DNA of 64,000 bases from Dehalococcoidia bacterium (lineage in GTDB: Bacteria; Chloroflexota; Dehalococcoidia; Lucifugimonadales; UBA3495). Positions 2,072 through 49,464 of this stretch are shown here, in pieces. Each line of letters begins with the position of its first letter. The first letter of the stretch is position 1. A program made the position numbers and the translations under genes. The stretch lies in the NCBI GenBank assembly GCA_965203435.1, contig CBDBCU010000002.1, positions 458,526-522,525 on the forward strand. The letters run 5' to 3'. The notes beneath the pieces were generated by a model. It did not search any database and was not told where the DNA came from. It saw nothing but the letters and a program-made list of their open reading frames with translations.

Positions 2072-4438
2072 TTACCGCCCGGCCGACAAATTTACCGACC
2101 ACAATTCCCCTTGGCCGGGGATATACTGGCCGGTGCGGATGGTTTTGATGGGATAATCGGGCAGGGGGACGATTGCCACGCATTCCCCGCCGGGCCGGCC
2201 GCCGTAGGTATTCAGGGGAAAATCCCGGTTCTCAAAGTTGACGGATGGGGCGGCCGGCGGCAAATCCTCCGGCCGGGCCGGGTGGATATGCAGGAATACC
2301 GGGGTTTCGTATTCGTCTTGAGTGCAGGCGGCTTTGGCGTAAAGCAGGCGGTTACGGCCGGCCTCCCGGTCAAGGAAAACGGCGAAATCCTCCGACCCGG
2401 CCGGGGGTTGCCGTTGCCGCCGCCCCTGGGCAATCAGTTCCCGCAAGCCGGGTTGGGAAAGGCTGTGCAATTCCGCCCCTAGGGTTGTCCCGCCGGGTTC
2501 GTAATTGCCGCCGCTGCGCTGCATCAGGATCAGGTCGCCGTCCCCATCATCGGGCAGCTGAATGACCGCCAGGCAAAGGCCGTCCACCCTTACCCGCTGA
2601 TTGTGCCAGGGGGCATAAAAGCCGGGCTGCGGGAAATAGGGCGGCAAGGTTTCCGGCGTCGGCGGTAGCGGCTTAACCCCAAACCACACATCCGGCCCGT
2701 CCGCCGGGCAGTTTTCCTGAATAAAGGTCAGCCGCCGGCCGTCAATATAGACATCATAATCGGCGCGGATAATCGGCTCTCCGGCCGTGGTTTGGCGGTA
2801 TATTTCCCGGTAGGCGGCAATGGCGGCCGGCGTCATTCGGGCATCGTCCAACGGCCGCGCTACACTGAGGGTATTGTTATAAAGGCGGCGGCGGTAGCGG
2901 GAATTGAAAGCCAAATCCGGCTGATACGCCGCCGGCTGGCCGGCCAAAGTATAGTCGGCGCGGCGATGCACGGTGTCGGCGGTCAACTGCTGCCGGTCTG
3001 CCGCCGGCAGGATGTTTAGATGCCGCCGGCCGGTACGCACGGTCAGAGTTTCATTTGGATGGCTGTCCAACAGGTATTGCAATCCATCCCCCGCCGCCAG
3101 TTTCCAGTAATCCATCGCATACTGCGTCCGCAGCCGCTCCGGCGTCGTACGGTTCACCAGAAAGTTGAAATAGTCGGTCTGCAAGGGATGGATTTGCGCC
3201 ATTTGCAGCAGGGTCAACCCCAAGCCTACTCCGGCCAATCCATACAATCCGGCCGGCCCATAGCGCCGGCGGGATAAGGCGGTCAACAGCCAACCGCCGC
3301 CCAAGGCCGCCAGCAGGCAAAAGGGCGCATAGAGAAAATAAAGCTGCCGCCAGCCCTCATACTGATTGGATCCCAGCAGGGCGGCGGCCAGCGGCGGCAA
3401 TAGAAAGCAGGCCGCCAGCAGCACCAGGAAACGCCGCCGGGTGTTGCGGAAAACCGCTCCGGGCCGGCGCCAGGCCCTTACCGCTACCATTGCCAATCCG
3501 ACAAAGCCCAGCAGCAAAATCGGCGGCGGCGTGGTGATGGCAAACCAGACGGCGGCGTAATGCGGCGGCAATTCGTTGGACAATAGCAATTGTCCCTGAA
3601 ACAGCTGCGGCAAAACAACCGGATGATTTACCGTCAAACTCAGGCTGGTGATCAGGTAGTCAACGGGATTGGCCCAGGCGTAGGGGGTTACGGCATACAA
3701 AGTCAGTCCGGCGGTCAAGGCAAACACTCCGGCGGTTAGCAGGATGGGTTTCCGTTCCGGCCAACCGGCCGCCCCTAGCAAATCCAGTCCCCGCATTGCC
3801 AGGGCCGCCGCCAAAAGCCCTAGCCCCATAATCCGCAGGTTGGTCAATATCCCTACGGCTATTCCCAGCAGCACAAAAGCGCCGACGGTGTCTTTGCGGA
3901 AAGCCCGTTCCAGCAGATACAGGGCGATGATGAGCAGGGCGAGAAAGGGCAGGTCTTTGCTGTTGAGGTAGGAATGGGCGTAGAGGCGGGGGTGCAGCAG
4001 GAAAAGCAGCAGGGCCAGCAGGGCGATAAGCCGATGGTCGGTTAGCCGATAAGCCAGCCGCCAGCAAAAGAAAGCGCCAATGATAAAGAGCAGGTGGGTC
4101 AGGGTCAGCCGCAGGCGGTGGACATAGTAATAATCCTCCAAGCCCAGGATCCCCTCGGCCAGCAGCAGGGGCAGCTCAAAAACCACGCCATAAACCCGGT
4201 CGTGGTAAAGCTCGGTATCGATGCGGTCGGACTGCCCGAGGATGTAGTCCCGATTGGCTTGGGCAATCTGCCGCTGCGCCCGTTCATCGTAGTTAATGCC
4301 ATAATCCCCGGCCAGCACCAAGCCGGCCATTAGGAAAAGGGCGCAGATAATCAGGCCGCCGCGGTCCATAAGGAAGTTCCGCGCCGCCCGGCGGCCGCCG
4401 GAAACTTGCGGAACTATGCGGCGCAGCGGCGGGAACAT
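2072..4438 (-). CDS. GT-C fold (PMT_2/ArnT/GT39-like) polytopic membrane protein, paralog B, with two C-terminal two-Cys modules
   Basis: ORF track 2072..4555. Start moved to ATG 4438 (MFPPLRRIVPQ...) because all paralogs begin there right after a TGCTATAAT box. Many hydrophobic segments and a PMT_2-like pattern (YGVVFELPLLLAE...LAYRL...LHPRLYAHSYLNSKD). C-terminus ...CVAIVPLPDYPIKTIRTGQYIPGQGELW. Confidence 0.8.
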   Translation of the reverse strand: MFPPLRRIVPQVSGGRRAARNFLMDRGGLIICALFLMAGLVLAGDYGINYDERAQRQIAQANRDYILGQSDRIDTELYHDRVYGVVFELPLLLAEGILGLEDYYYVHRLRLTLTHLLFIIGAFFCWRLAYRLTDHRLIALLALLLFLLHPRLYAHSYLNSKDLPFLALLIIALYLLERAFRKDTVGAFVLLGIAVGILTNLRIMGLGLLAAALAMRGLDLLGAAGWPERKPILLTAGVFALTAGLTLYAVTPYAWANPVDYLITSLSLTVNHPVVLPQLFQGQLLLSNELPPHYAAVWFAITTPPPILLLGFVGLAMVAVRAWRRPGAVFRNTRRRFLVLLAACFLLPPLAAALLGSNQYEGWRQLYFLYAPFCLLAALGGGWLLTALSRRRYGPAGLYGLAGVGLGLTLLQMAQIHPLQTDYFNFLVNRTTPERLRTQYAMDYWKLAAGDGLQYLLDSHPNETLTVRTGRRHLNILPAADRQQLTADTVHRRADYTLAGQPAAYQPDLAFNSRYRRRLYNNTLSVARPLDDARMTPAAIAAYREIYRQTTAGEPIIRADYDVYIDGRRLTFIQENCPADGPDVWFGVKPLPPTPETLPPYFPQPGFYAPWHNQRVRVDGLCLAVIQLPDDGDGDLILMQRSGGNYEPGGTTLGAELHSLSQPGLRELIAQGRRQRQPPAGSEDFAVFLDREAGRNRLLYAKAACTQDEYETPVFLHIHPARPEDLPPAAPSVNFENRDFPLNTYGGRPGGECVAIVPLPDYPIKTIRTGQYIPGQGELWSVNLSAGR

Positions 4439-4445
4439 AGGGGGG

Positions 4446-4454
4446 ATTATAGCA
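4446..4454 (-). promoter_or_regulatory. extended -10 box TGCTATAAT, 7 nt upstream of the paralog B ATG
   Basis: attatagca on + strand. Spacer 4439..4445 is 7 nt, then ATG at 4438. Confidence 0.6.
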
Positions 4455-4553
4455 TATAGCGACCGCGTCTTTACCGTCGGGGCAGTGGCATCAGCCCGAT
4501 TTAAGGGGTATAATAGATTTAACCTGGCCCCGCCGGATAAGAAAGGAATTGCC

Positions 4554-5090
4554 ATGTCGGAACACGCGGCCCAACACTACGCCGGCATCAGTCGGCGGAT
4601 GATCCGCCAATCCCATTACGAACTGACGCGCCGGGGCGACCGGCTCCAAGCCTCGGAAAAGGCCGCCGGAGCCGTAGCCCACGCGGTCAAAGCCGTCGGC
4701 GAGGATCGGTTCTGGCGGCACGATTCTCACAATCGGCGGCGGGCCATTATTGACCTGGTGGCCGCCGAGTATGGGCAGTCGGAGCTGACGGCGTTGAACG
4801 CGATGGCCGACGAGTTGCACGAGAATTTTTACGAGGATCAGCTGGAGGACTGGCAGGTACAGGAACGCTTGACCCGGCTGACCCGCTGGCTGGAGTCGCT
4901 GGTAGCAACCCGCACCTTGCCCCCGAACCCGGATTTCGTCCCTTCGCCGGGGCAGCAGCGGGTTCTGGATCGCCTGCGGCTTACCCCTGAGGAAATTGAA
5001 GCTAACGAGGCCAAGGAGTTTCCGCCGCCGATGCCCCCTTTCGCGCCGGAGGACGAGGAATGGGAGGAGGAGGATGGGGAAATGGCGTAG
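4554..5090 (+). CDS. PaREP1-like (HEPN superfamily) protein
   Basis: ORF 4416..5090 trimmed to ATG 4554 (AAGGAA upstream). Motifs GDRLQASEKAAGAVAHAVKAV, WRHDSH and LHENFYED match my recollection of the PaREP1/PaREP8 family pattern. Pro/acidic C-terminal tail. Confidence 0.6.
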   Translation: MSEHAAQHYAGISRRMIRQSHYELTRRGDRLQASEKAAGAVAHAVKAVGEDRFWRHDSHNRRRAIIDLVAAEYGQSELTALNAMADELHENFYEDQLEDWQVQERLTRLTRWLESLVATRTLPPNPDFVPSPGQQRVLDRLRLTPEEIEANEAKEFPPPMPPFAPEDEEWEEEDGEMA

Positions 5091-17163: not shown

Positions 17164-19122
17164 CTAGTGATGGGACTGGACGCCGGATTCCAGGATTAGC
17201 CCGCAGTAGGGGCAGAACTGGAAGGACGGCTTGGTCTGACTGCCGCAATGGGGGCAGGTCACCCCCTCTTTAGTGGCCGGCTCGTTGCTCCAGGCCACAA
17301 TGCCGATAAAGCAGATTATCCCGCCGATAAAGGGAATGGGAAAGCGGATATAAGGCCAGCCCACATCCACCAGCATCCCGGCCCCCAGAATCAGCACCCC
17401 CACCGCCGTTACCAGCGGCCAGTACGAGGGACTGGGCATATGTATGGTCGCCGGGTTCACCGGAGCCTCCGGCTCCGTGATGGGATTGCCCTCGGCCGCG
17501 GCGGCCCGCTTGACAATCCAGTAATGATCCAAGCCCCGCACCTGGGGGATTTGGGCGAAGTTGTAAGCCGGCGGCGGCGAGTCAATCATCCATTCCAGCC
17601 CGGGAGCGTCCCAGGGGTCATGGCCGGAATCCTTTTCTTTCCGCAGGCTGACCACCAGGTTCAGGATGAAAGCCAGGGTGCCGGCCAGCAGCACCAGATA
17701 GCCCAGGGAGGCCAGCAGGTTCAACCCATCCCAGCCGAACTCGCTGGCATAGGTGTAAATCCGGCGCGGCATCCCGTTCAGGCCCAGGTAGTGCATCGGG
17801 AAAAAGGTAATGTTCATCCCGATGAAATAGAGCCAGAAGTGGGCTTTGCCGATGCCCTCGTGCAGCAGTTTCCCGGTCAGCTTGGGAAACCAGTAATAGA
17901 CCCCGGAAAAGATGCCGAACAGGGCGCCGCCGAACAGCACATAATGGATATGGGCCACGATGTAATAGGTATCCTGCTGCTGATTGTCCGAGGGGGCGAC
18001 GGCATGGGACACCCCGCTGAGCCCGCCCACTACAAAGAGGGCGACGAACCCCAGGGAAAAAAGCATCGCCGTTTTCAGGTCAATGGAGCCGCCCCAAAGG
18101 GTGCCAATCCAGTTAAAGATTTTCACCCCGGTCGGCACGGCGATAAGCATGGTGGTGATGGTGAACACCGACACCGCAATCGGCCCCAGGCCCACGGTGA
18201 ACATATGGTGACTCCACACCGCCCAGCCCATTATGCCGATGACGATGCCGGAAAAGACCACGACCGGATAGCCGAACAGCGGCTTGCGGGAGAAAGTGGG
18301 CAGCACTTCGGAGACGATGCCCATCGCCGGCAGAATCAGGATATAGACCTCCGGGTGACCGAACACCCAGAACAGATGCTGCCACATAATGGGATCGCCG
18401 CCGCCTTCCGGGACGAAAAAGTTGGTGCCGAAGTTGCGGTCGAAGGTCAGTTCAATCAGCCCCACGGTGATGACCGGAAAGGCCAGCACCAGCAGCACCG
18501 AAGTCACCAGGGTCATCCAGACGAACAGGGGCATCCGCATCAGGCTCATCCCCGGCGCCCGCATATTGACGATGGTAACGATGAAGTTAAAGGCGGCGGC
18601 CAGGGAGGATACGCCCAGCACCTGCAAGCCCAAGGCCCAATAGTCCAGGCCGGCGTTGGGGCTGAAGGGCTTTTCGGTCAGGTTGGCGTAGGAAAACCAG
18701 CCGGCGTCCGGAGCCTGATTGGTCAGGAAACTGGCGTTGAGCAGCAGGCCGCCAAAGAGGAACACCCAGTAGCTGAACGCGTTCAGCCGGGGAAAGGCCA
18801 CATCCCGGGCCCCGATGGCCAGGGGGATGACGAAGTTAAAGAAACTGGCGCTCAGCGGCATCACCACCAGGAAAATCATAGTGGTGCCGTGCATGGTGAA
18901 CATCTGGTTAAAGGCGTCCGGGCTGACCAGGGAATTGTCCGGCACGGCCAGTTGCAGGCGGATGATGCCGGCTTCGATGCCGCCCAGGAGCAGAAAGATG
19001 AAAGCCGTCGTCCCGTACAGAACGCCGATGCGCTTGTGGTCAACCGTAGTAAGCCAGCTCCAGAGGCCGGACTGGCCGGCCGGGCGGGCAATTACGCCGG
19101 TAGTTTCGGCTGCGGTAGCCAT
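17164..19122 (-). CDS. ctaD: cytochrome c oxidase subunit I with extra C-terminal TM segments and a terminal CxxC-x10-CxxC zinc-ribbon-like tail
   Basis: 652 aa. WLTTVDHKRIGVLY, GHPEVYILILP, HHMF and the YVLFGG family signature. Tail CPHCGSQTKPSFQFCPYCG. Confidence 0.93.
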   Translation of the reverse strand: MATAAETTGVIARPAGQSGLWSWLTTVDHKRIGVLYGTTAFIFLLLGGIEAGIIRLQLAVPDNSLVSPDAFNQMFTMHGTTMIFLVVMPLSASFFNFVIPLAIGARDVAFPRLNAFSYWVFLFGGLLLNASFLTNQAPDAGWFSYANLTEKPFSPNAGLDYWALGLQVLGVSSLAAAFNFIVTIVNMRAPGMSLMRMPLFVWMTLVTSVLLVLAFPVITVGLIELTFDRNFGTNFFVPEGGGDPIMWQHLFWVFGHPEVYILILPAMGIVSEVLPTFSRKPLFGYPVVVFSGIVIGIMGWAVWSHHMFTVGLGPIAVSVFTITTMLIAVPTGVKIFNWIGTLWGGSIDLKTAMLFSLGFVALFVVGGLSGVSHAVAPSDNQQQDTYYIVAHIHYVLFGGALFGIFSGVYYWFPKLTGKLLHEGIGKAHFWLYFIGMNITFFPMHYLGLNGMPRRIYTYASEFGWDGLNLLASLGYLVLLAGTLAFILNLVVSLRKEKDSGHDPWDAPGLEWMIDSPPPAYNFAQIPQVRGLDHYWIVKRAAAAEGNPITEPEAPVNPATIHMPSPSYWPLVTAVGVLILGAGMLVDVGWPYIRFPIPFIGGIICFIGIVAWSNEPATKEGVTCPHCGSQTKPSFQFCPYCGLILESGVQSHH

Positions 19123-30760: not shown

Positions 30761-33700
30761 TTAAGGCCCGGCCACTAAACCCACCGACCACAAATCCCCT
30801 TGCCCGGGGACAAATTGCCCCGTCCGCACTTTCTTGATGGGATAATCCGGCAGAGGAACCGCCGCCAGACACTTGCCATCGAAATGGCCGCCTTGCCGGA
30901 CAAAGGCAAAGCCCCCGTGGGCAAAGCCGGCCTCCCGCCGCTCCGCCGGCAAATCGGCTACATCCTGCGGGACGATATGCAGGAAAAAGCCGGCCGCCGT
31001 ATCATCAGCCGCGCAGGATTCCCGCAAGTAAAGCAGCCGGTTATCCCGCCAATACAAGGCGAAATAATCCCGGGCCGCCGGTTCAGTGCTGGACAAGGCG
31101 GCGTAGTCAGCCCGCAGTTGGTCATATTCGGGCGCGGCGACTAACTCCACCGACCACAAATCGCCTTGGCCGGGGATATGCTGCCCGGTGCGTATTTCCT
31201 TGATGGGATAGTCGGGCAGGGCAACGGACACTAGACACTTCCCATCAAAAGGGCCGCCCCAGCGGGCAAAATCAAAACCCCGGTGGGCAAAACCGGCCGC
31301 CCGCCGCTCTGTCGGCAAAGCGGCAACATCCTCCGGGATGATATGCAGGAAAAAGCGGGCCGCCGTATCCGCCGCCGCGCAGGATTCCCGCAAGTAAATC
31401 AGCCGGTTGTCCTGAACATACAGGTCGAAATAGCCCCGGGCCGCCGGCTGCTCAACGGTCAGAGCGGCATAAGTCGCCCGCAGGGATTCCGGGTCGACCG
31501 GCGGATACCAGTTGACTTCCCAGCGGCCGACTTGCCCGGTGCGGAGGGCGGCGATGGGATAATCCGGCAAGGGAACCGTGGCCAGGCATTTGCCGTCAAA
31601 ATGGCCGCCCCAGCGCCCAAAGGCAAAATCTAGGTTGTCCTTAGCGGCCGCCGGCCCGGCCGACAAAGCGGCGGCGGCCGGGAATATATGCAGAAAGAAC
31701 GGCTCGGCCGTATCCGCCGCCGTGCAGGATTCCCGGAGATAGGTCAGCTGATTATCCTGAATATACAGGGCAAAGAAGTCCCGGAGGTCGGGTTGAATAG
31801 CGGCCAAGGCGGCGTAAGCGGCCCGCAGGGGTTCCGGGTCGGCCGGCGGATACAGGTTCTTTTTCCAGACCCCGGCCTGGCCGGTGCGGATTTCGCGGAT
31901 GGGATAGTCCGGCAGGGGATATACCGCCAGGCAGTCCCCGCCGGGTCGGCCGCCTTGTACGGACAGGTGGAAATCCCGGTTATCAAAGCCGTCGCCCCGG
32001 AGTTCCACCGGCAAATCCGCCAAGTTCGCCGGGTAGATATGCAGGGTTACGCGGGTTGTATATTCAGCAGTGGCGCAGTTCTTTTTGGCGTAGAGCAGGC
32101 GGTTACGGCCGGCCGCCTGGTCCAGGAAAACCTCAAAAGCCGCCGGCCCGGCCGGGGGCGGCTGATTCTGTCGATAGTCGGCGATAATTTCCCGCAAGCC
32201 GCGGCGGGACAGGGGGTAAAGTTCCTCCCACAAGGGCAAGCCCGCCGTCCCCCCGTCGATCCAATGCTGCTGCCGCAGGATAAGGTCGCCGTTGGCATAA
32301 TCCGGCAGTTGGAGGACGGCCAGGCAAAGCCGGCCCAGCCTTACCCCGTGCGTCTTGAGGGTGGCATAGGCCAAGTTTGGTCCCAAAGGCGGCGGCAAGG
32401 TTTCAAGATGGCGGGGAAAAATCCGCACGCCGAACCAGGCATCCGGCTCCTCCGGAGCGCAGTTTTCCCGGACAAAAGTCAGCCGCGGCCCCTCCCGATA
32501 AACATTATAATCGGCGCGGATAATCGGCTCCCGGGCCGTAGCTTGACGGTAAAGTTCCCGGTAAGCGGCGATGGCCGCCGGCGTCATCCGGGCCGCGTGC
32601 AGCGGCCGCAGGGCAATCGGAGTGTTGTGATAAATTTGCCGGGGATAAAGGGAATTAAAAGCCCAATCCGGCTGGCTGGGCTTCGGCTCCCTTAGTTCAT
32701 AATCGGCGCGGCGGCCGGCCCTCAGCAAACGCCGCCGCGCCGCCGCCGGCAGGATTTGCTGATTTTCTACGAGCTTGCTGCTCCCCAATACGACCAGCGT
32801 CTCCCCGGGATGGCGTTCCAGCAGATACTCCAGCGTCCGCCGATAGGCCAATTGCCAGTGATCCATTGCGTACCGCGTCCACAGATATTCCGGAGTAGTC
32901 CGATTCACCAGAAAGTTGAAATAGTCATGCTGCCAGGGATGGAGCTGCATCATCTGGAACAGAACCAATCCCACGCCTAATCCGGCCAAGCCGTACACCC
33001 CGGCCCGCCCCGGCCGCCAACGGGAAAAGCGGCGCGCCAGCCCGCCCAATCCCCCGGCCGCCAGCAGGCAGAAAGGCGCATACAGGAAATAGAAATGCCG
33101 CCAGTTGTCGTACTGATTGGGGCCCAGCAGGGCGGCGGCCAGCGGCGGCAGCAGGAAAGCCGCCAGCAGCAGCCCGGCAAAGCGCTGCCGGGTATTGCGG
33201 AAAACCGCCCCAGGCCGGCGGCAAAGCCCGGCCGCCACGACCGCTATTCCCGCCAGCCCCAGCAGCAGCAACGGCGGCGGCGTGGTGATGCTGAACCAGA
33301 CCACAGTGTAATGCGGCGGCAGTTCGGTGGAAAGAAACCAATCGCCCTGAAACAACTGCCGCGGCGGAACGATCGGATGATTGACCGTCAAGTTCAGACT
33401 CGTCGCCAGGTAGTCCAGCGGTCCCGTCCAGGCGTAGGGGGTGGCGGCGTACCAGGCCAGCCCGGCCGCCAGAATAAACCCTCCGCCGCTCAACAGAATG
33501 TCCCGGCGCGCCGCCCCGTTTCCGGCATAAAACAAGTCCAGCCCCCGCAGGACTAATACTGCGGGAATCAGCATTGCCCCCATAATCCGCAGATTAGTCA
33601 GCAGTCCCACGACTATTCCCAGCAGCGCAAAGGCCCCGATAGTGTCCCGGCGGAAAGCCCGTTCCAGCAGATACAGGGCAAGGATGAACATAGTGAGAAA

Positions 33701-34192
33701 AGGCAGGTCTTTGGAATTGACGAAGGAATGGGCGTAGATGCGGGGGTGCAACAGGAAAATCAGCAGGGCAAACAGGGCCAGCAGGCGATTGTTGAACAAA
33801 TGGCAAGCCAGCCGGTAGCAAAAGAAACCGCCAACGATAAAGAACAGGTGGGTTAAGGTTAAACGGAGCTGGTGGATCTGGTAATAATCCACCAGGCCCA
33901 GGGCCCGCTCGGCCAGCAGCAACGGCAGCTCAAAGGCCACGCCATACAAGGCGTGGGGGTAGGGGAGCTCCTCGAAACTGTCCCCCTGGCCCAGGATGTA
34001 GTTCAGGTTGGCAAGGGCAATCTGCCGCTGCGCCATTTCATCGGTACTGAGGCCGTAATCCCCGGCCAGGAATAACCCGGCCAGCAGAAAAAGGGCGCAG
34101 ACCAACAGGCCGCCATAGGCGGCCAGAAAATTCCGCGCCCCCCGGCTAGGACCGGAATGGGGCGGCGATATGCGGCGCAGTGGCGGGAACAT
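30761..34192 (-). CDS. GT-C fold (PMT_2/ArnT/GT39-like) polytopic membrane protein, paralog C, with five C-terminal two-Cys modules
   Basis: ORF 30761..34225 trimmed to ATG 34192 (MFPPLRRISPP). N-terminal half colinear with paralogs A, B and D. The C-terminal ~590 aa are 5 repeats ending ...LPDYPI.(E/K/A).RTGQ. Confidence 0.85.
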   Translation of the reverse strand: MFPPLRRISPPHSGPSRGARNFLAAYGGLLVCALFLLAGLFLAGDYGLSTDEMAQRQIALANLNYILGQGDSFEELPYPHALYGVAFELPLLLAERALGLVDYYQIHQLRLTLTHLFFIVGGFFCYRLACHLFNNRLLALFALLIFLLHPRIYAHSFVNSKDLPFLTMFILALYLLERAFRRDTIGAFALLGIVVGLLTNLRIMGAMLIPAVLVLRGLDLFYAGNGAARRDILLSGGGFILAAGLAWYAATPYAWTGPLDYLATSLNLTVNHPIVPPRQLFQGDWFLSTELPPHYTVVWFSITTPPPLLLLGLAGIAVVAAGLCRRPGAVFRNTRQRFAGLLLAAFLLPPLAAALLGPNQYDNWRHFYFLYAPFCLLAAGGLGGLARRFSRWRPGRAGVYGLAGLGVGLVLFQMMQLHPWQHDYFNFLVNRTTPEYLWTRYAMDHWQLAYRRTLEYLLERHPGETLVVLGSSKLVENQQILPAAARRRLLRAGRRADYELREPKPSQPDWAFNSLYPRQIYHNTPIALRPLHAARMTPAAIAAYRELYRQATAREPIIRADYNVYREGPRLTFVRENCAPEEPDAWFGVRIFPRHLETLPPPLGPNLAYATLKTHGVRLGRLCLAVLQLPDYANGDLILRQQHWIDGGTAGLPLWEELYPLSRRGLREIIADYRQNQPPPAGPAAFEVFLDQAAGRNRLLYAKKNCATAEYTTRVTLHIYPANLADLPVELRGDGFDNRDFHLSVQGGRPGGDCLAVYPLPDYPIREIRTGQAGVWKKNLYPPADPEPLRAAYAALAAIQPDLRDFFALYIQDNQLTYLRESCTAADTAEPFFLHIFPAAAALSAGPAAAKDNLDFAFGRWGGHFDGKCLATVPLPDYPIAALRTGQVGRWEVNWYPPVDPESLRATYAALTVEQPAARGYFDLYVQDNRLIYLRESCAAADTAARFFLHIIPEDVAALPTERRAAGFAHRGFDFARWGGPFDGKCLVSVALPDYPIKEIRTGQHIPGQGDLWSVELVAAPEYDQLRADYAALSSTEPAARDYFALYWRDNRLLYLRESCAADDTAAGFFLHIVPQDVADLPAERREAGFAHGGFAFVRQGGHFDGKCLAAVPLPDYPIKKVRTGQFVPGQGDLWSVGLVAGP

Positions 34193-34199
34193 AGGCCGG

Positions 34200-34208
34200 A
34201 TTATAGCA
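34200..34208 (-). promoter_or_regulatory. extended -10 box TGCTATAAT, 7 nt upstream of the paralog C ATG
   Basis: attatagca on + strand. Spacer 34193..34199. Confidence 0.6.
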
Positions 34209-34218
34209 TACCCCCTTA

Positions 34219-34357
34219 CCGTCATTCCCGTCCTTTTCTACATTCCCGCCATCCCCTACCGTCATTCCCGCGTAAGCGGGAATCCCGCAGTGGCTTGCCA
34301 AGACTGCGGCATTATACGGCAGTACCGTCGGGATTCCCGCTTACGCGGGAAGGACGG
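34219..34357. repeat. REP-1 cluster with a composite element (core in inverted orientation)
   Basis: ccgtcattcccgtcc..., ccgtcattcccgcgtaagcgggaatcccgcagtggcttgccaagactgcggcattatacggcagtaccgtcgggattcccgcttacgcgggaaggacgg. Confidence 0.85.
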
Positions 34358-34379: not shown

Positions 34380-36977
34380 TCAGGGGGCCACCGCCAACTC
34401 CACCGCCCATAATTCCCCCCGCCCGGGTACATACTGCCCCGTCCGCATTTCCTTAATGCCGCCGGGATAGCCCGGCAAGGCAACGGACGCCAGACACTTG
34501 CCGTCAAAAGAGCCGCCATAGCGGGCAAAGGCAAAATCCAAGTTGGCAAAGCCGGCCGGCCGCCGTTCCGCCGACAAATCCGCAACATCTACCGGGACGA
34601 TATGCAGGAAAAAGTCGGCCGCCGTATCCTCAGCCGCGCAGGATTCCCGGATATAGGTCAAATGCCCGTCCCGCCAATACAGGGCAAAGTAGTCCCGGGC
34701 TGCCGGCGCCACGGCAGCCAGGGCGGCATAATCGGCCCGCAGTTGGTCGGGATCGGCCGGGAAATAGAGGACTTCACTCCAGCGGTCGGATTGGCCGGTG
34801 CGGATTTCCCGGATGGGATAATCCGGCAAAAGAAAGGCGGCCAGACACTCTCCGCCGGGCCGGCCGCCGTAATCGGGCAGTAGGAAGTCCCGGTTCTCGA
34901 ATCCCCCCGTCCAAAGATAAAACGGCAAATCCGCCAAGTTTTCCGGATAGATATGCAGCGTTACCAAGGTTTCATATTCGGCGGGAGAGCAGTCCCCTTT
35001 AGCGTAGAGCAGGCGGTTCTGGCCGGCGGCATCCGGCTCCCGGAAAACGGCGAAACTATCCGGCCGGGCCGGGCGGGGGCTGGCCCGCCGGGCCGCGGCG
35101 ACGCGCTCCCGCAATCCCGGCTGGGCGCGGCTGTAAAGGACCGCCCATTGGTCGCCCTCCGGCTGATCCTGGCCGATGATAAGGTCGTGGGGAGTAGCGT
35201 CGGGCAGTTGGAGGACCGCCAGGCAGGTATTATCCCAGCGCACCCCGTGACTGCGTAAGATAATAGTGGGTTCCCCTTCCCTTCCTCTTGCTGGCGCCGG
35301 CAGGAGAACTTGGGCAAAGACGCGCCGCGCCATATCCCCGGCGGCGCAGTTTTCCCGGATAAAAGTCAAAGTTCGGCCCTGGATATAAACATCGTAAGCG
35401 GCCCGGATGATGGGGGTTCCGGCCACCGTCTGCCGATAAAGTTCCCGGTAGGTTGCCACGGCGGCGGCGGTCATCCGGGATGCTTTCAGGGGTTTTACGG
35501 CCAGCAGAGTATTGTGGTAAGTCCGTCCCACCGGCAGCGCGTTAAAGGCCAAATCCGGATCGTTGCCCTGCCAAATGTAAAACATCGCATAATCCCCCTC
35601 GACGAACCCCTCCCGAAAACCCGGCTCGTCAGCCCAGACGCCCCGCACCGCCAGGGTCTCGTTGGGATGGCGTTTTCGCAGATAGTCTAGGGCCGTCGCT
35701 ACCGCCGCGTTGGGGGAACGAATCTGATACTGCGTCCGCAGATATTCCGGAGTCGTCCGGTCGACCAGGAAGTTGAAATAAAGATCCTGCAAGGGATGGA
35801 TTTGCGTCATCGCGAGGATAATCAAGCCCAAGCCAACCCCGGCCAGGCCGTACGCGCCGGCCGGCAAAACCGGCTTGGCGAATTGTCGGCGGCGGGCGCT
35901 CGAACGACAAATCCAATGCAATCCCCCGGCCGCCAGCAGGCTGAAAGGCGTATACAGGAAATAGAAATGCCGCCAATCGTTATACTGATTGGAACCCAGC
36001 AGGGCGGCGGCCAGCGGCGGCAGCAGAAAGCAAGCCAGCAGCAACCACCCAAAGCGCAATCGGGTATTGCGGAAAACCGCCCCGGGCCGGGTCAGGCTCC
36101 GGGCCAGGACCGCAACGATCCCGACGCCGCCCAGCAACAGTAGCGGCGGCGGCGTGGTAATACTGAACCAGACCAAGTTGTAATGCGGCGGCGTTTCGTT
36201 GGAAAGAATCCATTCGCCTTGGAACAACGACCACACCCGAGTGGGATGATTGACCGTCAATTCCAGGCTCGCCGCCAGGTAGTCCAGGGGATGGGTCCAG
36301 GCGTAGGGCGCGGCGGCGTACAGCGTCAGCCCGGCGGCCAGGGCGAACATTCCGGCCGTCCGCAATATGCTCCGCCGCTGCGGCCAATTCCCGGCATAAA
36401 ACAAATCCAATCCCCGCATTCCCAAGGGAGCCGCAAAGAGCATTATCCCCATAATCCGCAGGTTGGTCAGCAATCCCACCGCTATTCCCAGCAGGACAAA
36501 GGCCCCGATAGTGTCCCGGCGGAATGCCCGTTCCAGCAGATAGAGGGCGATTATGAACATACTGATAAAGGGCGCGTCTTTGGAATTGATAAAGGAATTG
36601 GCATAGATGCGGGGATGCAGGAGAAAAATAAGCAGGGCAAACAGGGCCAGCAGCCGATTGCCGAACAGCCGATAAGCCAGCCGGTAGCAGAAATAGCCGC
36701 CGATAATAAAGAACAGGTGGGTTAGCAAGGAACGGAGGTGGTGGATGTCGCCTTTATCGGTCAAGCCCAGGGCCCGCTCGGCCAGTAGCAGGGGCAGCTC
36801 AAAGGCTACGCCATACACCCGGTCGTGGTAACGCTCCGTCGCCACGCCGTCGGTCTGGCCCCGGATGTAATTCAGGTTAGCTTGGGCAATGCGCCGCTGG
36901 TTCGGCTCATCAATGTGAATGCCGTAATCGCCGGCCAGGGCCAGCCCCGCCAGCAGGAAAAGGGCGCAGACCAGCAA
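34380..36977 (-). CDS. GT-C fold (PMT_2/ArnT/GT39-like) membrane protein, paralog D, three C-terminal modules; as sequenced it is cut off from its native start by a G16 tract
   Basis: 865-aa ORF beginning at a TTG inside the first TM (LLVCALFLLAGLALAGDYG). The conserved N-terminus and promoter lie upstream in another frame (see 36978..37087). Confidence 0.8.
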   Translation of the reverse strand: MLVCALFLLAGLALAGDYGIHIDEPNQRRIAQANLNYIRGQTDGVATERYHDRVYGVAFELPLLLAERALGLTDKGDIHHLRSLLTHLFFIIGGYFCYRLAYRLFGNRLLALFALLIFLLHPRIYANSFINSKDAPFISMFIIALYLLERAFRRDTIGAFVLLGIAVGLLTNLRIMGIMLFAAPLGMRGLDLFYAGNWPQRRSILRTAGMFALAAGLTLYAAAPYAWTHPLDYLAASLELTVNHPTRVWSLFQGEWILSNETPPHYNLVWFSITTPPPLLLLGGVGIVAVLARSLTRPGAVFRNTRLRFGWLLLACFLLPPLAAALLGSNQYNDWRHFYFLYTPFSLLAAGGLHWICRSSARRRQFAKPVLPAGAYGLAGVGLGLIILAMTQIHPLQDLYFNFLVDRTTPEYLRTQYQIRSPNAAVATALDYLRKRHPNETLAVRGVWADEPGFREGFVEGDYAMFYIWQGNDPDLAFNALPVGRTYHNTLLAVKPLKASRMTAAAVATYRELYRQTVAGTPIIRAAYDVYIQGRTLTFIRENCAAGDMARRVFAQVLLPAPARGREGEPTIILRSHGVRWDNTCLAVLQLPDATPHDLIIGQDQPEGDQWAVLYSRAQPGLRERVAAARRASPRPARPDSFAVFREPDAAGQNRLLYAKGDCSPAEYETLVTLHIYPENLADLPFYLWTGGFENRDFLLPDYGGRPGGECLAAFLLPDYPIREIRTGQSDRWSEVLYFPADPDQLRADYAALAAVAPAARDYFALYWRDGHLTYIRESCAAEDTAADFFLHIVPVDVADLSAERRPAGFANLDFAFARYGGSFDGKCLASVALPGYPGGIKEMRTGQYVPGRGELWAVELAVAP

Positions 36978-37071
36978 CCCGCTGTAACTGGGGGGGGGGG
37001 GGGGGTAAAGTAGATGTCCTGCGGATAAGGCGGAAAATTTGCGGGGGGATATGGCGCGGCGGCGTAAGCAT
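36978..37071 (-). other. displaced native 5' coding segment of paralog D (ATG 37071), out of frame by one nucleotive with the main ORF
   Basis: ATG CTT ACG CCG CCG CGC... = MLTPPRHIPPQIFRLIRRTSTL + poly-Pro. 37071 to 36977 is 94 nt (3n+1). With 15 C the frame reads ...PPPPPSYSGLLVCALF, matching AAYGGLLVCALF of paralog C. Confidence 0.8.
36990..37005. repeat. G16 homopolymer (C16 on the coding strand) inside the 5' coding region of paralog D
   Basis: Counted directly: ...gctgtaact g gggggggggg ggggg taaag... Confidence 0.95.
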
Positions 37072-37078
37072 AGACGGC

Positions 37079-37087
37079 ATTATAGCA
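37079..37087 (-). promoter_or_regulatory. extended -10 box TGCTATAAT, 7 nt upstream of the native paralog D ATG
   Basis: attatagca on + strand. Spacer 37072..37078. Confidence 0.6.
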
Positions 37088-37159
37088 TAAAGCTACCGAT
37101 GGATTCCTTGCCGGCCGGGGGCAATTCCGGGGAATTGCTTATACCCGACTAATCCTCAA

Positions 37160-37315
37160 CCGTCATTTCTGCCGCTCGCCTACCGTCATTCCCGCGTAAG
37201 CGGGAATCCGGCGGTTGCTTGCCGAGGCGGCGGTATCAGGCAGTACCGTTCGGGATTCCCGCTTACGCGGGAATGACGGTAGAGGCGGCGGCCCATCCGA
37301 CTTGCCGGGACGCCG
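37160..37315. repeat. REP-1 cluster with a composite element
   Basis: ccgtcattcccgcgtaagcgggaatccggcggttgcttgccgaggcggcggtatcaggcagtaccgttcgggattcccgcttacgcgggaatgacgg. Confidence 0.85.
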
Positions 37316-40604: not shown

Positions 40605-41516
40605 CTAGGCGGCCAGCAGGCCCACGCCGACCCACCAGTGTTTGCCCTTGCCGCGCCGCCGCCGTTGAAAGCCCTGGGCGGTCAGCTGCATTCCGAAAGT
40701 GCGTTGCGGCAGCGGCTGCCGGCCCTGTTCTTTACACCAGTCGAGATACGCCTGATAAAACTCCTTGGCGATAATCAGGGCATCATCACTCACGGCGCAG
40801 CGGGCGGCTACGAAGTCGGCGACCTGAGCCAGGGGCGAGGCGGCTTCCCCGGCGGCCGCGGCCAGTTCCGCGGCGGCGGCCCGAGCGGCGGCCGCTTCCC
40901 GTTCCGCCGCGGCTGCGGCGGCGGCTTTAGCCGCGGCGGCCGCTTCCTCTTGCGCCTTTTCCACCTGGTCGCTGCAAAACTGGAGCAGAGCCATATAGCG
41001 CTGCAAGCCGCCGAAATCGTCCCACAGCACTTCCTTGCCATCCAGAATAGACGCGTCCAGGGTGAAATCCACCGGCTTGACTTCGAAGCGATGCCGGTAG
41101 TCCGGGGGGCAGACCCAGACCGGAGAAAGCAAGTCCCGGCTCATAGTATTGCTGAGCAGGTACAGGGCGCAGCGGGCGGCTTTCAGGTCCGGGTCGGGGT
41201 CTTGGAGCGGCTGGCCTTTGTAGGTCAGCTCCATGGTGCGGTGGGTCTGGATGGCGGAAAAGGCGAAGGAGCCGCGGATCTGGTTGTTGATGCAGCGCAC
41301 CAGTTCCCGGTTGTCACCCAGTTGCAGGGGCGTATCCACTTCCACCGTGGCATCGTTCAGCGCCTTGAACTCCGTTTTGCCCGGCACATAGGCGGCGGTG
41401 ATGACGCCGCGCTGGGCGGCCGCCCACAGCGCAATGGACAGGGCCAGGTTCTCCTTGACCATCTTGATGTTCGATGCGGATGGCGCCACTTTGTTACCCC
41501 CTGAACTGCTGGTCAT
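40605..41516 (-). CDS. hypothetical protein: unknown ~190-aa N-terminal domain, poly-Ala/Glu linker, C-terminal domain resembling the extreme C-terminus of P4/D5-family phage-plasmid primases
   Basis: C-terminus VADFVAARCAVSDDALIIAKEFYQAYLDWCKEQGRQPLPQRTFGMQLTAQGFQRRRRGKGKHWWVGVGL fits the pattern (..C......s.ly..Y..WC...G..pls...fg..L...Gf...r...g....Gi.L). Confidence 0.55.
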   Translation of the reverse strand: MTSSSGGNKVAPSASNIKMVKENLALSIALWAAAQRGVITAAYVPGKTEFKALNDATVEVDTPLQLGDNRELVRCINNQIRGSFAFSAIQTHRTMELTYKGQPLQDPDPDLKAARCALYLLSNTMSRDLLSPVWVCPPDYRHRFEVKPVDFTLDASILDGKEVLWDDFGGLQRYMALLQFCSDQVEKAQEEAAAAAKAAAAAAAEREAAAARAAAAELAAAAGEAASPLAQVADFVAARCAVSDDALIIAKEFYQAYLDWCKEQGRQPLPQRTFGMQLTAQGFQRRRRGKGKHWWVGVGLLAA

Positions 41517-47445: not shown

Positions 47446-49464
47446 ATGCAGTTGCAGCGGATTGAGGACCTCCTGGCAACCCGGCGGCGGCCCGACAGCT
47501 TTACCCTCTTTCTGCTTTGCCTTTCCCTGCTGGGCGCGGGCTTGGCTCTGGCGCTGCACGGCGGCCGCGGCGTCCTGCTGGATTGGGATTCGGTAAATTA
47601 CATTTCCGTGGCCGACAGCCTGCTGGCCGGCGAGGGTTTCCGGCAGTTTAACGGGCTGCTGTATCGGGACTGGCCGCCGCTCTATCCCCTGCTGCTGGCC
47701 GCGCCGGGATTGGCCGGCGTTGACCCTTATCCCTGGGCCGGATGGCTCAATGCCCTGGCCTTTGCCTTGACCATTTTCGTCGTCGGCCAAGGGCTGCGGC
47801 GGCATTTGACTTCCCGGGGTCTGCTGCTGGGCGGCTGTCTGGCGGCGGCCCTGGCCTATCCCCTGACCCGGCAGGCGGCCTTTGCCCTTACCGAAACGAT
47901 TTTCATTCTGTTCACCCTGCTGGCGCTGCTGGCGGCGGAGCGGTTTCTGAACGCGGAACGGCGATCGGCTCTGCTGTGGGCGGCCCTGTTCACCGCCCTG
48001 GCTTGCCTGACCCGTTACCTGGGCTTGACCCTGGTCGTCGCTATTGTCCTGCTGCTGGCCCTGCAAAGCGGCGTCCCCCTACGGCAGCGGGCGCAGCGCA
48101 TTGGTCTCTATGCAATCCTCTCCTTGGCCCCGATCGGCTTGTGGATGTTGCGGAACTACCTGCTGTTCGGCGGTCTGACCGGCCGCCGCTCTTATGATGT
48201 ATTGACCTTTTCCGAATCCCTGACGCAAACCGGGGCGGCGCTGTCCGACTGGACGGCGTGGGGATTGCTGGTCTCCGTCGTATCCCCCTCCTGGTTGAGT
48301 ACGGCGCTGAATTTTCTGCCGGCGGCCATTCTGATGGTATTGGCCGCCGCCCTGATTTATGGACTGACGGCCGCCGGGCGCGGCGGAGGCCCGCCCCTCC
48401 TTGACTTACGGCCGCTCTATATCTTTGGCCTCTTTGCCCTCGTTTATCTAATCCTGTTCAATTTCGTGGCGCATCGCGCTAGTTTTGCCGCCGAGGACAA
48501 CAGCCGCTACATCCTGCCGGCTTGGTTGCCGCTTTTGCTGACCGCCTTGATTGCCCTGGATCGGCTAAGGCAATACATCAAGGAATGGGGGACGGATGAA
48601 AGCCGGTGGATTCTGGCCGGGCTGTACCGGGGGCGGTTTTGGCTGCGCGGCGCGCTGTTCCTGGCCTTTATCCTGTGGCTGGGTTGGCAGGTTTTCCTGA
48701 ACGGGCAGCAGATAGTACGGGCTTGGGACGGCCGGCCGGATAGCTATTCCGTCTGGGCCGAGGATGAAACCTTGCGCTATCTGCGGGAAACGGTCCGCCC
48801 GGATTCGTGGGAATGGGTACTCAGCAACCTGCCGGCGGCGACTTACATTTTTGGCGGCCGGTCGCAGCAGCAGGCCGAACTGCCTTACAACATTCCGGAT
48901 TTGCTCCAATGGATGGCCGCCGGCGATTTGGGGCCGGCCACCATCTATGTGGTCTGGCTTTACGGCTCTCCGGATGAGCATTATTACGGCTACGACCACC
49001 AGGATTTGCGGGATTTGCCCACGGCGGAGACGATGGCGGAATTTGACTCTGGGGTGCTGCTGCGGTTAAGGCGCGCGGCCGAGCCGGGCTTGTCTTACCG
49101 GGTAAATCTGCACGGCAACCGGGTGTTTTATCGGAAAAGCCCCTGCTTTCCCAGCGACGCTAATCCCGTTTTTTCCCTGCAAATTTACCCGGCGGAGGGG
49201 CAGAACCTGCCCGCCGACCGGCAGGAATACGGTTTTGTGGGCGAGGATTTCCGGCTGGAGGATTTCGGACGGCGGGAACAGGGCCGCTGTTATATGGAGC
49301 GAGAACTGCCATCCTATCCCATCCGCGAAATCCGCACCGGGCAGTATCGCATTGGCGCGGACGGCGCGGCGGTAAATATCTGGCAAGACGGTTTCCGCCG
49401 GGAAACCCTCCGGGAGCCGCTGCGCCCGGCCCGCCCCCGGCGCTGGTCCCGTTTTGGTAATTAA
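47446..49464 (+). CDS. GT-C fold (PMT_2/GT39-like) membrane protein, distant paralog E, with one C-terminal two-Cys module
   Basis: YRDWPPLYPLLLAAPG... is a typical PMT_2 pattern. The C-terminus NRVFYRKSPC...FSLQIYPAEGQNLPADRQEYGF...GRCYMERELPSYPIREIRTGQY matches the module of paralogs A-D. Confidence 0.85.
   Translation: MQLQRIEDLLATRRRPDSFTLFLLCLSLLGAGLALALHGGRGVLLDWDSVNYISVADSLLAGEGFRQFNGLLYRDWPPLYPLLLAAPGLAGVDPYPWAGWLNALAFALTIFVVGQGLRRHLTSRGLLLGGCLAAALAYPLTRQAAFALTETIFILFTLLALLAAERFLNAERRSALLWAALFTALACLTRYLGLTLVVAIVLLLALQSGVPLRQRAQRIGLYAILSLAPIGLWMLRNYLLFGGLTGRRSYDVLTFSESLTQTGAALSDWTAWGLLVSVVSPSWLSTALNFLPAAILMVLAAALIYGLTAAGRGGGPPLLDLRPLYIFGLFALVYLILFNFVAHRASFAAEDNSRYILPAWLPLLLTALIALDRLRQYIKEWGTDESRWILAGLYRGRFWLRGALFLAFILWLGWQVFLNGQQIVRAWDGRPDSYSVWAEDETLRYLRETVRPDSWEWVLSNLPAATYIFGGRSQQQAELPYNIPDLLQWMAAGDLGPATIYVVWLYGSPDEHYYGYDHQDLRDLPTAETMAEFDSGVLLRLRRAAEPGLSYRVNLHGNRVFYRKSPCFPSDANPVFSLQIYPAEGQNLPADRQEYGFVGEDFRLEDFGRREQGRCYMERELPSYPIREIRTGQYRIGADGAAVNIWQDGFRRETLREPLRPARPRRWSRFGN

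Follow-up and report, generated by a model that had tools for sequence, protein, structure and literature searches.

The 64-kb window (the whole stretch of DNA analysed) holds on its minus strand a glycosyltransferase gene whose 5′ coding region is split by one long homopolymer. As the first-pass annotation stated, G16 occupies 36990..37005 of the plus strand, giving C16 on the coding strand. Ahead of this tract, also on the minus strand, lie an extended -10 element of the TGnTATAAT type, TGCTATAAT (37079..37087; an exact match, with no recognisable -35), and, 7 nt past this box, an ATG start codon (37069..37071) lacking a Shine-Dalgarno sequence. The head peptide read from the ATG, MLTPPRHIPPQIFRLIRRTSTL, is 22 codons long; therefore, the tract starts at exactly codon 23. 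Codons 2-22 (37006..37068, minus strand) specify an Arg-rich, cytoplasmic N-terminal tail, LTPPRHIPPQIFRLIRRTSTL, that matches the N-termini of the in-frame orthologs P0018, P0021 and P0032. Beyond the tract the body of the gene (34380..36989, minus strand) is intact in the +1 frame, ...PPPPPSYSGLLVCALFLLAGLALAGDYG, and open from VC through to the stop at 34380, a length of 863 codons; a mechanical ORF call gives it as 34380..36977, 865 aa from a TTG start.

The start context TGCTATAAT-N7-ATG had been described as conserved in the family, and it recurs at the ATG at 37071 and at paralogs starting at 4438, 34192 and 2037, all on the minus strand. Across the window and the related loci described below, the element stands exactly 7 nt before the ATG in 16 of 16 family genes. 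A generic sigma-70 scan of the window for -35/-10 pairs missed the promoter of the tract gene, because there is no -35. The promoter-ATG geometry suggests that the mRNA is leaderless. Upstream of the promoter is a REP-like palindrome pair, TTCCCGCGTAAGCGGGAA and TTCCCGCTTACGCGGGAA (37189..37273, unstranded), belonging to a 42-copy intergenic family. An Rfam search of the window returned three tRNAs only, with no match at the tract locus. A G-quadruplex on the G16 strand that blocks transcription is a speculative idea.

The body belongs to the PMT_2 family of GT-C glycosyltransferases: its profile, PF13231, matches at 37.7 bits where the cut-off is 26.1 (E = 3e-9), and is precomputed for all 120 homologs listed. 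The annotated product of the window's own gene, P0001, is 100% identical to it and lacks the N-terminus. From the tract onward the order is SYSG, a first transmembrane helix (TM1, LLVCALFLLAGLALAG), a DYG..DE loop, a multi-pass membrane domain (about 12 helices predicted within residues 30-470) and C-terminal beta-rich repeat modules. In an alignment of 41 sequences, the GDYG..D motif directly after TM1 has D57 and Y52 invariant and D51 at least 90% conserved; the acidic residues of this first extracytoplasmic loop are presumably catalytic. With a mean pLDDT of 61.8 and a pTM of 0.41, the AlphaFold2 model is too weak to carry a firm statement on the fold; Foldseek run with it returned AglB, PglB, STT3 and GPI mannosyltransferase I at probability 1.0 but with TM-scores of only 0.20-0.27. 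A sequence-profile search of the PDB with the tract-gene protein gave no match.

The GT-C family is massively expanded in the genomes that carry it: five paralogs lie in the window, and four stand in tandem in related locus L016. The tandem neighbor, paralog C (30761..34192, minus strand; start MFPPLRR at 34192), serves as an internal control, with no long homopolymer and 93 nt from ATG to TM1 core. That distance is exactly 93 nt in seven of seven tract-less paralogs, and 96-109 nt in the nine tract genes. The 5′ modules of tract-type genes are more conserved than the bodies.

The length of the tract alone sets the frame in which the 22-codon head enters the 863-codon body. The distance from the ATG to the first codon of the called ORF is 37071-36977 = 94 nt, or 3n+1, as had been calculated; therefore, C15, C18 or C12 fuses head and body, the first two being the lengths proposed earlier. 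With C16 the ATG frame reads PPPPPQLQRVAG... and ends after 53 codons, again as noted before, at a double stop, TGA TGA (36912..36907, codon 54 being the first), which closes the wrong-frame segment QLQRVAGLRPFPAGGAGPGRRLRHSH (36907..36989, minus strand). Repair to C15 makes the tract PPPPP and the junction ...TLPPPPPSYSGLLVC, a segment identical in the in-frame orthologs P0018 and P0021.

Such a run is exceptional in this DNA. It is the only homopolymer of at least 9 nt in the window, where the next-longest are 8, 7 and 7 nt and counts drop about four-fold per extra base (20 runs of C6, one of C7). An i.i.d. estimate with p(C) = 0.31 puts the chance of a G/C run of at least 16 in the window at about 6e-4. 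We considered whether the tract is a mere polyproline linker, and codon choice rules this out: proline is written CCG in 54% of cases and CCC in 39.5%, and Pro-Pro pairs elsewhere are CCG-CCG in 17 of 26 and CCC-CCC in one of 26. As CCG is preferred, and as no tract is interrupted despite variable flanks, the purity of the run does not come from proline coding.

The tract is not peculiar to the window. Eight related loci (L001-L004 and L014-L017) were compared at the DNA level; they come from independent metagenome assemblies (ERZ23495693, ERZ23495796, ERZ23495640, ERZ23495593, ERZ23495629, ERZ23495567 and ERZ23495595) of one re-assembly project, labeled PANK22-1, so that one pipeline is common to all of them. 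The label probably stands for the sponge metagenomes of Pankey 2022 in their re-assembly for the Reef Microbiomics Database (PMC13083261), a paper whose main text does not contain it. The source metagenomes of the relatives appear to be marine-sponge, and the bacterium of the window is probably sponge-associated; that it is a sponge Chloroflexota is a guess drawn from its GC content, the PANK22-1 label and the abundance of GT83 enzymes in sponge Chloroflexi (PMC6306507). It had been suggested to look at the equivalent codon of orthologous genes for a tract, and an uninterrupted poly-C run stands there in eight of eight. A plain frameshift pseudogene had been expected if no relative carried a tract; all eight do. 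With the window, the nine pure runs measure 16, 15, 11, 16, 13, 14, 11, 12 and 11 nt, and the tract is the only homopolymer of at least 9 nt within 163 kb. In the alignment of the nine loci roughly every second flanking column is variable, yet the run has stayed long and pure in lineages whose dS reaches about 0.7. Scans of the collections genome_contigs and metagenome_contigs with a protein pattern and the DNA pattern TCTGCGCCCTTTTYCTGCTGG gave chance matches only; therefore, these two collections hold no relatives.

Four of the nine loci are in frame and five, the window and four others, are out. Neither wrong frame is spared: three of the five (the window, L003 and L002) are at +1 and two (L014 and L004) at +2. 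This 5:4 ratio is biased, since loci were picked partly for truncated gene calls; a less biased protein census counts seven truncated against 20 in-frame among 27 tract-type genes. Gene calls that lack the N-terminus occur in tract-type genes only (five verified in DNA versus 20 in frame, and none of 94 tract-less paralogs; Fisher p = 2.9e-4). In-frame relatives show proline runs of 2, 3, 4 and 5, an in-frame length polymorphism. The 53-aa out-of-frame head peptide, used as a query for further OFF alleles, brought up no candidates.

What keeps these out-of-frame genes in being? One answer is that nothing does: the window gene would be a redundant member of a large paralog family, permanently inactivated by a plain frameshift. 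The many paralogs in the genome make redundancy plausible, and the assembled sequence is indeed out of frame, with P0001 annotated accordingly. The rest of the gene does not look like a relic. The tract is its sole lesion, the 863-codon body is intact in DNA of 62.5% GC, and promoter, ATG and head peptide are all conserved; neither multiple disabling lesions nor a dN/dS near 1 is seen, the values against orthologs being 0.26-0.39. The four further OFF alleles are likewise intact and constrained: over all five the bodies run from 863 to 1102 codons, dN/dS is 0.26-0.46, and the lowest value falls in a pair in which both members are OFF (window and L004). OFF and ON alleles can be close orthologs, as in L014/L015 (94% aa identity) and L003/L016 (90%). 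By these ratios the OFF-allele bodies are under purifying selection; gene decay is therefore rejected, and we regard it as the least credible of the readings considered here. A second reading accepts the frameshift and lets expression get round it: either tRNA-Pro slips by +1 on CCC-C in the ribosome or RNA polymerase stutters on the C/G run, so that the shift would be bypassed or tuned instead of switched in the DNA. For the second route, long homopolymers can cause transcriptional slippage. For the first, the window, L003 and L002 each need exactly a +1 shift, and among proline contexts CCC-C is the classic one for +1 shifts, which m1G37 and EF-P normally hold in check (PMC7577736, PMC12340085). 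Ribosomes would also be expected to stall at five prolines in succession, on the slippery run itself (PMC8129111). However, a programmed site should stay out of frame across orthologs, and in-frame genes make up 20 of the 27 tract-type ones; the out-of-frame alleles also need different shifts, +1 in some and +2/-1 in others. Recoding would at most make some OFF states leaky, and as the main account of the locus it is very improbable.

The more serious competitor is an error of homopolymer length: the real tract would be C15 (or 18) and the gene intact, with PPPPP as a linker, while sequencing, polishing or assembly would have produced the frameshift. One base fewer yields a protein that matches the in-frame orthologs over that segment, and any length lies within one base of an in-frame one, so that a consensus by itself permits error. 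Four of the five OFF alleles are among the longer tracts (13, 14, 16 and 16), as expected from length-dependent mutability, but also from mistakes in sequencing, PCR or assembly where G/C homopolymers are long. P0001, P0121 and P0122, at least 90% identical and on contigs of 0.8, 3.6 and 1.5 Mb, are all called truncated, which raises the possibility of systematic miscalling if these are long-read assemblies. P0122 probably shares a single 1,469,295-bp contig with the in-frame P0021. Against error stand the OFF alleles of five independent assemblies, which reach down to C11 (L002), a length usually reliable for consensus calling, and which fall in each of the two wrong frames; with identical tract flanks, L014 (C14) and the window (C16) lie on either side of the in-frame 15. 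Error also leaves the existence, purity and conservation of the tract unexplained. On balance we consider it unlikely, though the likeliest of the alternatives. It concerns the state of the window allele only, and is compatible with a general hypermutability of the tract.

We think it probable that the poly-C run works as a hypermutable contingency tract, switching a PMT_2-family GT-C glycosyltransferase on and off. The first-pass annotation had named it a candidate for slipped-strand phase variation, and the relatives strengthen the case: tracts of 11-16 C in eight of eight, mixed frames, intact bodies. Three features of a contingency locus are present, namely a repeat at the 5′ end, a frame set by its length, and ON and OFF alleles free of other lesions. 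Frequent, reversible length changes among the cells of one clone, which define phase variation, would be expected as well, as would a phenotype or protein level that follows repeat length. The proposed switch would sit in the juxtamembrane cytoplasmic tail of the enzyme. Transcription from the extended -10 promoter would give a leaderless mRNA whose 5′ AUG sets the reading frame; slipped-strand mispairing during replication would add or remove cytosines. With 3n of them (12, 15 or 18 here) the ribosome would pass through a proline run into TM1 and the catalytic membrane domain (ON); with 16, as assembled, translation would stop after 53 codons, and the gene would be OFF or strongly reduced, because the body then has no promoter-proximal start. 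A clonal population would thus be a mix of cells with and without the envelope-glycosylating activity. The anatomy and the allele comparison are direct observations; replication slippage as the cause, its reversibility, a phenotypic effect and the acceptor substrate are inferred.

A more elaborate version, which we hold to be improbable, makes the tract a graded, multi-state switch in a combinatorial system, rather than a binary one. Alleles of 3n length may be ON yet held back, as polyproline stalls the ribosome in an EF-P-dependent way; those of 3n+1 length, C16 among them, may be leaky, with tRNA-Pro slipping +1 on CCC-C of the leaderless mRNA; and 3n+2 alleles may be truly OFF. With several tract-type GT-C genes possible per chromosome, symbiont populations may then display shifting combinations of envelope glycans, which may serve, for example, escape from phages or from host phagocytosis.

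The contingency-tract reading would have consequences beyond the locus. What is known of repeat-driven phase variation comes almost wholly from cultured pathogens and gut commensals, and the tract gene is a comparably clear candidate from an uncultured GC-rich bacterium. If the reading is right, envelope glycosylation in symbiont populations would vary stochastically, with implications for host recognition and phage escape in the sponge holobiont, and tract length would become a PCR-sized marker with which to track switching across metagenomic time series. It would also follow that, in metagenome-assembled genomes, a gene called ‘truncated’ or a ‘pseudogene’ at a long homopolymer can reflect biology, not error, and that automatic polishing of long homopolymers may delete real states.

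The proposed switch is of a known type. Familiar examples are lgtA, lgtC, lgtG and pgtA of Neisseria, futA and futB of Helicobacter pylori, and wlaN and Cj1295 of Campylobacter jejuni. Poly-G/poly-C contingency loci in glycosyltransferase genes are established in host-adapted pathogens (PMC3068675, PMC8355987, PMC5084427). The likeness to the tract gene is close: a glycan-modifying enzyme has a long G/C mononucleotide run in the 5′ part of its coding sequence, run length sets the frame, several family members occur per genome, and the alleles of relatives are in and out of frame with ORFs otherwise intact. The enzymes differ. Those of the pathogens are mostly soluble or peripheral GT-A/GT-B proteins using nucleotide sugars, whereas that of the window is an integral-membrane GT-C (PMT_2) protein with an extracytoplasmic repeat domain. 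The pathogens are Proteobacteria and Campylobacterota whose genomes are AT-rich or of moderate GC and whose mRNAs are led by Shine-Dalgarno sequences, in contrast to 62.5% GC and an apparently leaderless mRNA here; and switching of the pathogen loci is shown by experiment, whereas that of the window's tract is proposed. The limited library of literature searched yielded no GT-C/PMT_2 example of homopolymer switching. More generally, genome-wide surveys present 5′-biased homopolymeric tracts as a regulatory device of prokaryotes (PMC2831843; for Bordetella, PMC1891110). Their tracts likewise lie close to the 5′ end of the ORF, so that a frameshift cuts the product short at an early point, but they come from sequenced isolates and are mostly shorter than about 10 nt, unlike the 11-16 nt of the window's family.

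Mycobacteria offer a GC-rich counterpart, exemplified by the C7 tract of glpK. Phase variation at homopolymeric tracts is described for the Mycobacterium tuberculosis complex (PMC10334774, PMC12263978). As in the window, frameshifts fall at C/G runs in a GC-rich genome, and leaderless mRNAs are common in mycobacteria; reversibility is a feature of the mycobacterial case. The mycobacterial tracts are about 7-9 nt long and in metabolic genes, whereas the window family's are 11-16 nt and in an envelope GT-C gene. The setting had been called unusual in advance; with switching documented in these GC-rich organisms (PMC10334774), that is only partly right, and what is new is the host lineage, the GT-C family, the leaderless context and the uncultured bacterium. 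A functional parallel may be drawn with a membrane enzyme that is switched by other means. The gtrABC operons of Salmonella and Shigella phages, which glucosylate O-antigen, are phase-variable. Here too a polytopic membrane glycosyltransferase, GtrC, which uses a polyprenyl-phosphate sugar at the outer face of the membrane, is turned ON and OFF (as is proposed for the tract gene), and several gtr families are possible per genome. GtrC is unrelated in sequence to PMT_2, and its switching is epigenetic, through Dam methylation and OxyR at the promoter instead of repeat slippage.

The window gene, paralog D, is a PMT_2-family GT-C gene on the minus strand and begins with TATGCTATAAT-GCCGTCT-ATG (ATG 37071..37069). 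Its first 22 codons, the head, encode MLTPPRHIPPQIFRLIRRTSTL and run into a tract of 16 C (37005..36990, G16 on the forward strand), followed by AGTTACAGCGGGTTGCTGGTCTGC. Past the tract, the ATG frame reads PPPPPQLQRVAG and ends at TGA TGA (36912..36907) after 53 codons; the +1 frame reads PPPPPSYSGLLVCALFLLAGLALAGDYG and then stays open for 863 more codons, the body, to a stop at 34380. The mechanical ORF (34380..36977, 865 aa) takes as its start a TTG within the first membrane helix (TM1). Upstream, the body frame has a TAA within the -10 box, and its first ATG, GTG or TTG is that TTG at 36977; the C16 state therefore leaves the body without a promoter-proximal start, as the first-pass annotation had claimed. 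The rest of its description of the locus (start context, G16, frames, TGA after 53 codons) is likewise correct in the sequence, and to the lengths of 15 or 18 that it expected to fuse head and body, re-reading adds 12. The longest other homopolymer in the 64-kb window is 8 nt, and homopolymer counts there drop about four-fold with each extra base.

A search with the repaired protein returned P0001 (865 aa, 100% identical, the window's own product) and many orthologs. Among the matches listed, homolog N-termini are of two types: type 1, tract-less (94 proteins), reads MFPPLR...AALNFL..HSGLL without a proline run; type 2, tract-type (20 in-frame proteins), reads ML(L/T)(T/P)LRHIPPQISRLIRR..(L/F), then P2-P5, then SYSG or SSPTC. 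Two homologs, P0018 and P0021, read ...PPPPPSYSGLLVC, exactly what the window gene would encode there with 15 C's. A further seven proteins have calls truncated at the N-terminus, starting within or after TM1, and one more ends at a contig edge. DNA was compared at eight related loci besides the window, all ENA metagenome scaffolds, and the tract that the first-pass annotation proposed to look for at the same codon position in related genomes is present, as an uninterrupted C run, in all eight. The run keeps the gene in frame in L001 (C15), L015 (C11), L016 (C12) and L017 (C11); it puts the body out by +1 in L003 (C16) and L002 (C11), and by +2 in L014 (C14) and L004 (C13). Flanks of the form TTA-Cn-AGTTACAGC are common to L014 and the window. 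The tract is the only homopolymer of at least 9 nt in each locus (163 kb examined), and the five DNA-verified truncated calls, window included, are all tract-type, each broken at the tract.

In the 5' module, about 100 nt before the tract and about 60 nt after it (window 36930..37110, compared with L014 and L015), the window gene shares 84-92% identity with L014; in the bodies the figures are only 62-78% for DNA and 64% for protein; bodies joined to type-2 heads fall in three divergence classes. Such a comparison suggests a promoter-head-tract cassette subject to gene conversion or exchange among paralogs, or to stronger constraint.

The plain frameshift pseudogene, which the first-pass annotation had set out as its alternative, is very improbable: OFF (out-of-frame) alleles retain intact bodies in 5/5 cases (863-1102 codons), and pairs compared across the membrane domain give dN/dS values of 0.26-0.46, the smallest coming from an OFF/OFF pair, window and L004. 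Tests of 5' length, recency, association and purity contradict it as well. The ATG lies exactly 93 nt from the TM1 core in 7/7 tract-less paralogs; in the nine tract genes this distance is 96, 101, 101, 102, 102, 103, 103, 108 and 109 nt. State differs within close OFF/ON pairs (L014/L015, 94% protein identity, dS 0.086; L003/L016, 90%), and so changes faster than the genes diverge. Truncated calls account for 5/25 tract-type genes (DNA-verified) against 0/94 tract-less ones (Fisher p = 2.9e-4; p = 1.4e-5 when two unverified truncated cases are added). Proline codons are mostly CCG (54%; CCC 39.5%), and Pro-Pro pairs outside the tract are CCG-CCG in 17/26 cases and CCC-CCC in 1/26; when the nine loci are aligned, about half of the columns flanking the tract are variable, dS between lineages reaches about 0.7, and interrupted tracts number 0/9. 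Read from sequence, these results, body intactness among them, are comparative signatures of a contingency locus.

Two further accounts of the C16 state were weighed. The main rival, that the assembled tract of the window allele is one base too long and its true length is 15, is unlikely but deserves a hearing: OFF alleles are commoner among longer tracts, and truncated calls are found for all three of the closest genes, which lie on contigs of 0.8-3.6 Mb. As a general account, error fits poorly with an OFF allele at just 11 C's (L002), with OFF alleles in both wrong frames, and with same-flank alleles on either side of 15 (14 and 16). Recoding, a rather improbable account, would make 3n+1 alleles such as C16 leaky, through transcriptional stuttering or +1 slippage of tRNA-Pro on CCC-C, a context for such slippage according to two reports (PMC7577736, PMC12340085); an obligatory programmed shift is contradicted by the in-frame state of most orthologs.

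A slippage-driven contingency (phase-variation) tract is the best explanation and a probable one, and the comparative tests on nine loci favor the slipped-strand interpretation of the first-pass annotation. To the observed anatomy and comparative pattern of the tract, a mechanism can be fitted. Slipped-strand mispairing within the C/G run, presumably at replication, would alter tract length reversibly; the frame would be set by a leaderless AUG; 3n lengths would yield a proline linker in a cytoplasmic Arg-rich tail, leading on into TM1 and the catalytic domain, and other lengths would bring termination within 32-66 codons, with a likely consequence for the cell envelope. In-frame relatives carry 2-5 prolines and differing post-tract residues; the segment is thus tolerant of length and sequence variation, and a coding repeat can persist there. 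The poly-C locus is a candidate contingency locus: three of five features of that class were tested, and all three were found.

The start context is common to the family. TATAAT-N7-ATG, with a spacing of exactly 7 nt, occurs in 16/16 family genes of the window and related loci, in most as TGCTATAAT, an extended -10 element; no Shine-Dalgarno sequence precedes the ATG in these 16 genes. The family's mRNAs are most naturally read as leaderless, translated from a 5'-terminal AUG. Type-2 genes are often called from an in-frame ATG within the -10 box (TATA-ATG-CCN-TNT-ATG; L001 1480, window 37078..37080), which adds an MPSM or MPFM prefix; as the -10/N7/ATG geometry is conserved, the three extra codons look like an annotation artefact.

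The repaired window protein matches Pfam PMT_2 (PF13231) at 37.7 bits (cut-off 26.1) and PMT more weakly; PF13231 is present in 120/120 homologs among the matches listed. A GDYG..D motif lies right after the first helix: across 41 aligned homologs Y52 and D57 are invariant, and conservation of D51 is at least 90%. The conserved acidic residues of GT-C enzymes occupy a position just after the first helix. An AlphaFold2 model of P0018, an in-frame ortholog 83% identical, is of low-to-medium confidence (pLDDT 61.8) and predicts about 12 helices, then beta-rich modules. In Foldseek, the helical part matches AglB, PglB, STT3 and GPI mannosyltransferase I (TM-scores only 0.2-0.27, at probability 1.0), and FNIII-like beta sandwiches match the C-terminal part; this predicted fold is consistent with, but weak evidence for, a GT-C assignment.

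The window holds four paralogs besides the tract gene: 2072..4438 (-), 30761..34192 (-), one starting at 2037 (-) that runs off the left end, and a more distant one at 47446..49464 (+). The 2037 paralog has a C8 in its coding strand (19..26, G8 on the forward strand), within a conserved S-P-P-G-L-R-E segment, and a T7 at 1969..1975, equivalent in position to the poly-C site; both are in frame, and they are the next-longest window homopolymers after G16. Family members (window 30761..34225, 34380..36977 and 2072..4555; P0003-P0015) have lengths of about 850 to 1547 aa and differ chiefly in how many copies they carry of a C-terminal module, about 110 aa long (motif FFLHI.P..DLP....GF.N.DF.F...GG.FDGKCLA.V.LPDYPI..IRTGQ), a predicted beta sandwich.

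In related loci the tract-gene neighborhood is rich in defense and toxin-antitoxin-like genes: a DUF3500 gene lies downstream in L003, L014 and L015, then runs of PaREP1, DUF6883 and DUF4926 genes, and L003, L015 and L016 have restriction-modification genes close by. In the window, ORF 40605..41516 (-; 303 aa), some 3.5 kb away from the tract gene, matches Pfam Pox_D5 (primase/helicase-associated; E = 5.6e-7) and may be a mobile-element or prophage remnant. A palindromic 18-mer, TTCCCGCKTAMGCGGGAA, has 42 copies in the window (0.02 expected), including 7809/7876, 28518-28874 (7 copies), 34265/34334, 37189/37256 and 54063-54359 (5 copies, 69-70 nt apart). Usually paired about 68-70 nt apart with loops in opposite orientation, at times in regular arrays, it is intergenic at the sites checked: a REP/BIME-like family, also flanking GT-C paralogs; in L002-L003, similar sequence lies upstream of the tract gene. 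Elsewhere, cytochrome c oxidase subunit I (17164..19122, -; cluster relatives 652-690 aa) is extended at its C-terminus, and the extension ends in a CxxC...CxxC motif resembling a zinc ribbon (CPHCGSQTKPSFQFCPYCG).

The comparison scaffolds are labelled PANK22-1_SAMN1229xxxx_METAG. The Reef Microbiomics Database paper, in which sponge metagenomes of 16 studies were re-assembled, cites Pankey et al. 2022 (PMC13083261); the label, absent from its main text, most likely denotes the Pankey 2022 sponge samples. That label, a GC content of 62.5%, the many toxin-antitoxin and restriction-modification genes flanking related loci, and the reported abundance of GT83-type enzymes in sponge Chloroflexi (PMC6306507) fit a sponge symbiont and prove nothing.

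Homopolymeric-tract contingency loci are known in Neisseria, Haemophilus, Helicobacter, Campylobacter and Bordetella (PMC5084427, PMC8355987, PMC1891110, PMC2831843) and, more recently, according to one report, in GC-rich mycobacteria (PMC10334774). Searches of one literature library turned up neither an SSR-switched GT-C enzyme nor an account of phase variation in sponge symbionts. The window candidate would have its mechanism in common with the classical loci; the enzyme differs, for it is a PMT_2 GT-C integral to the membrane, not a soluble GT-A or GT-B. New are the gene family, the apparently leaderless context, and the uncultured host, probably a symbiont. For a known mechanism in a place where it was not expected, this is a candidate with good support that can readily be tested.
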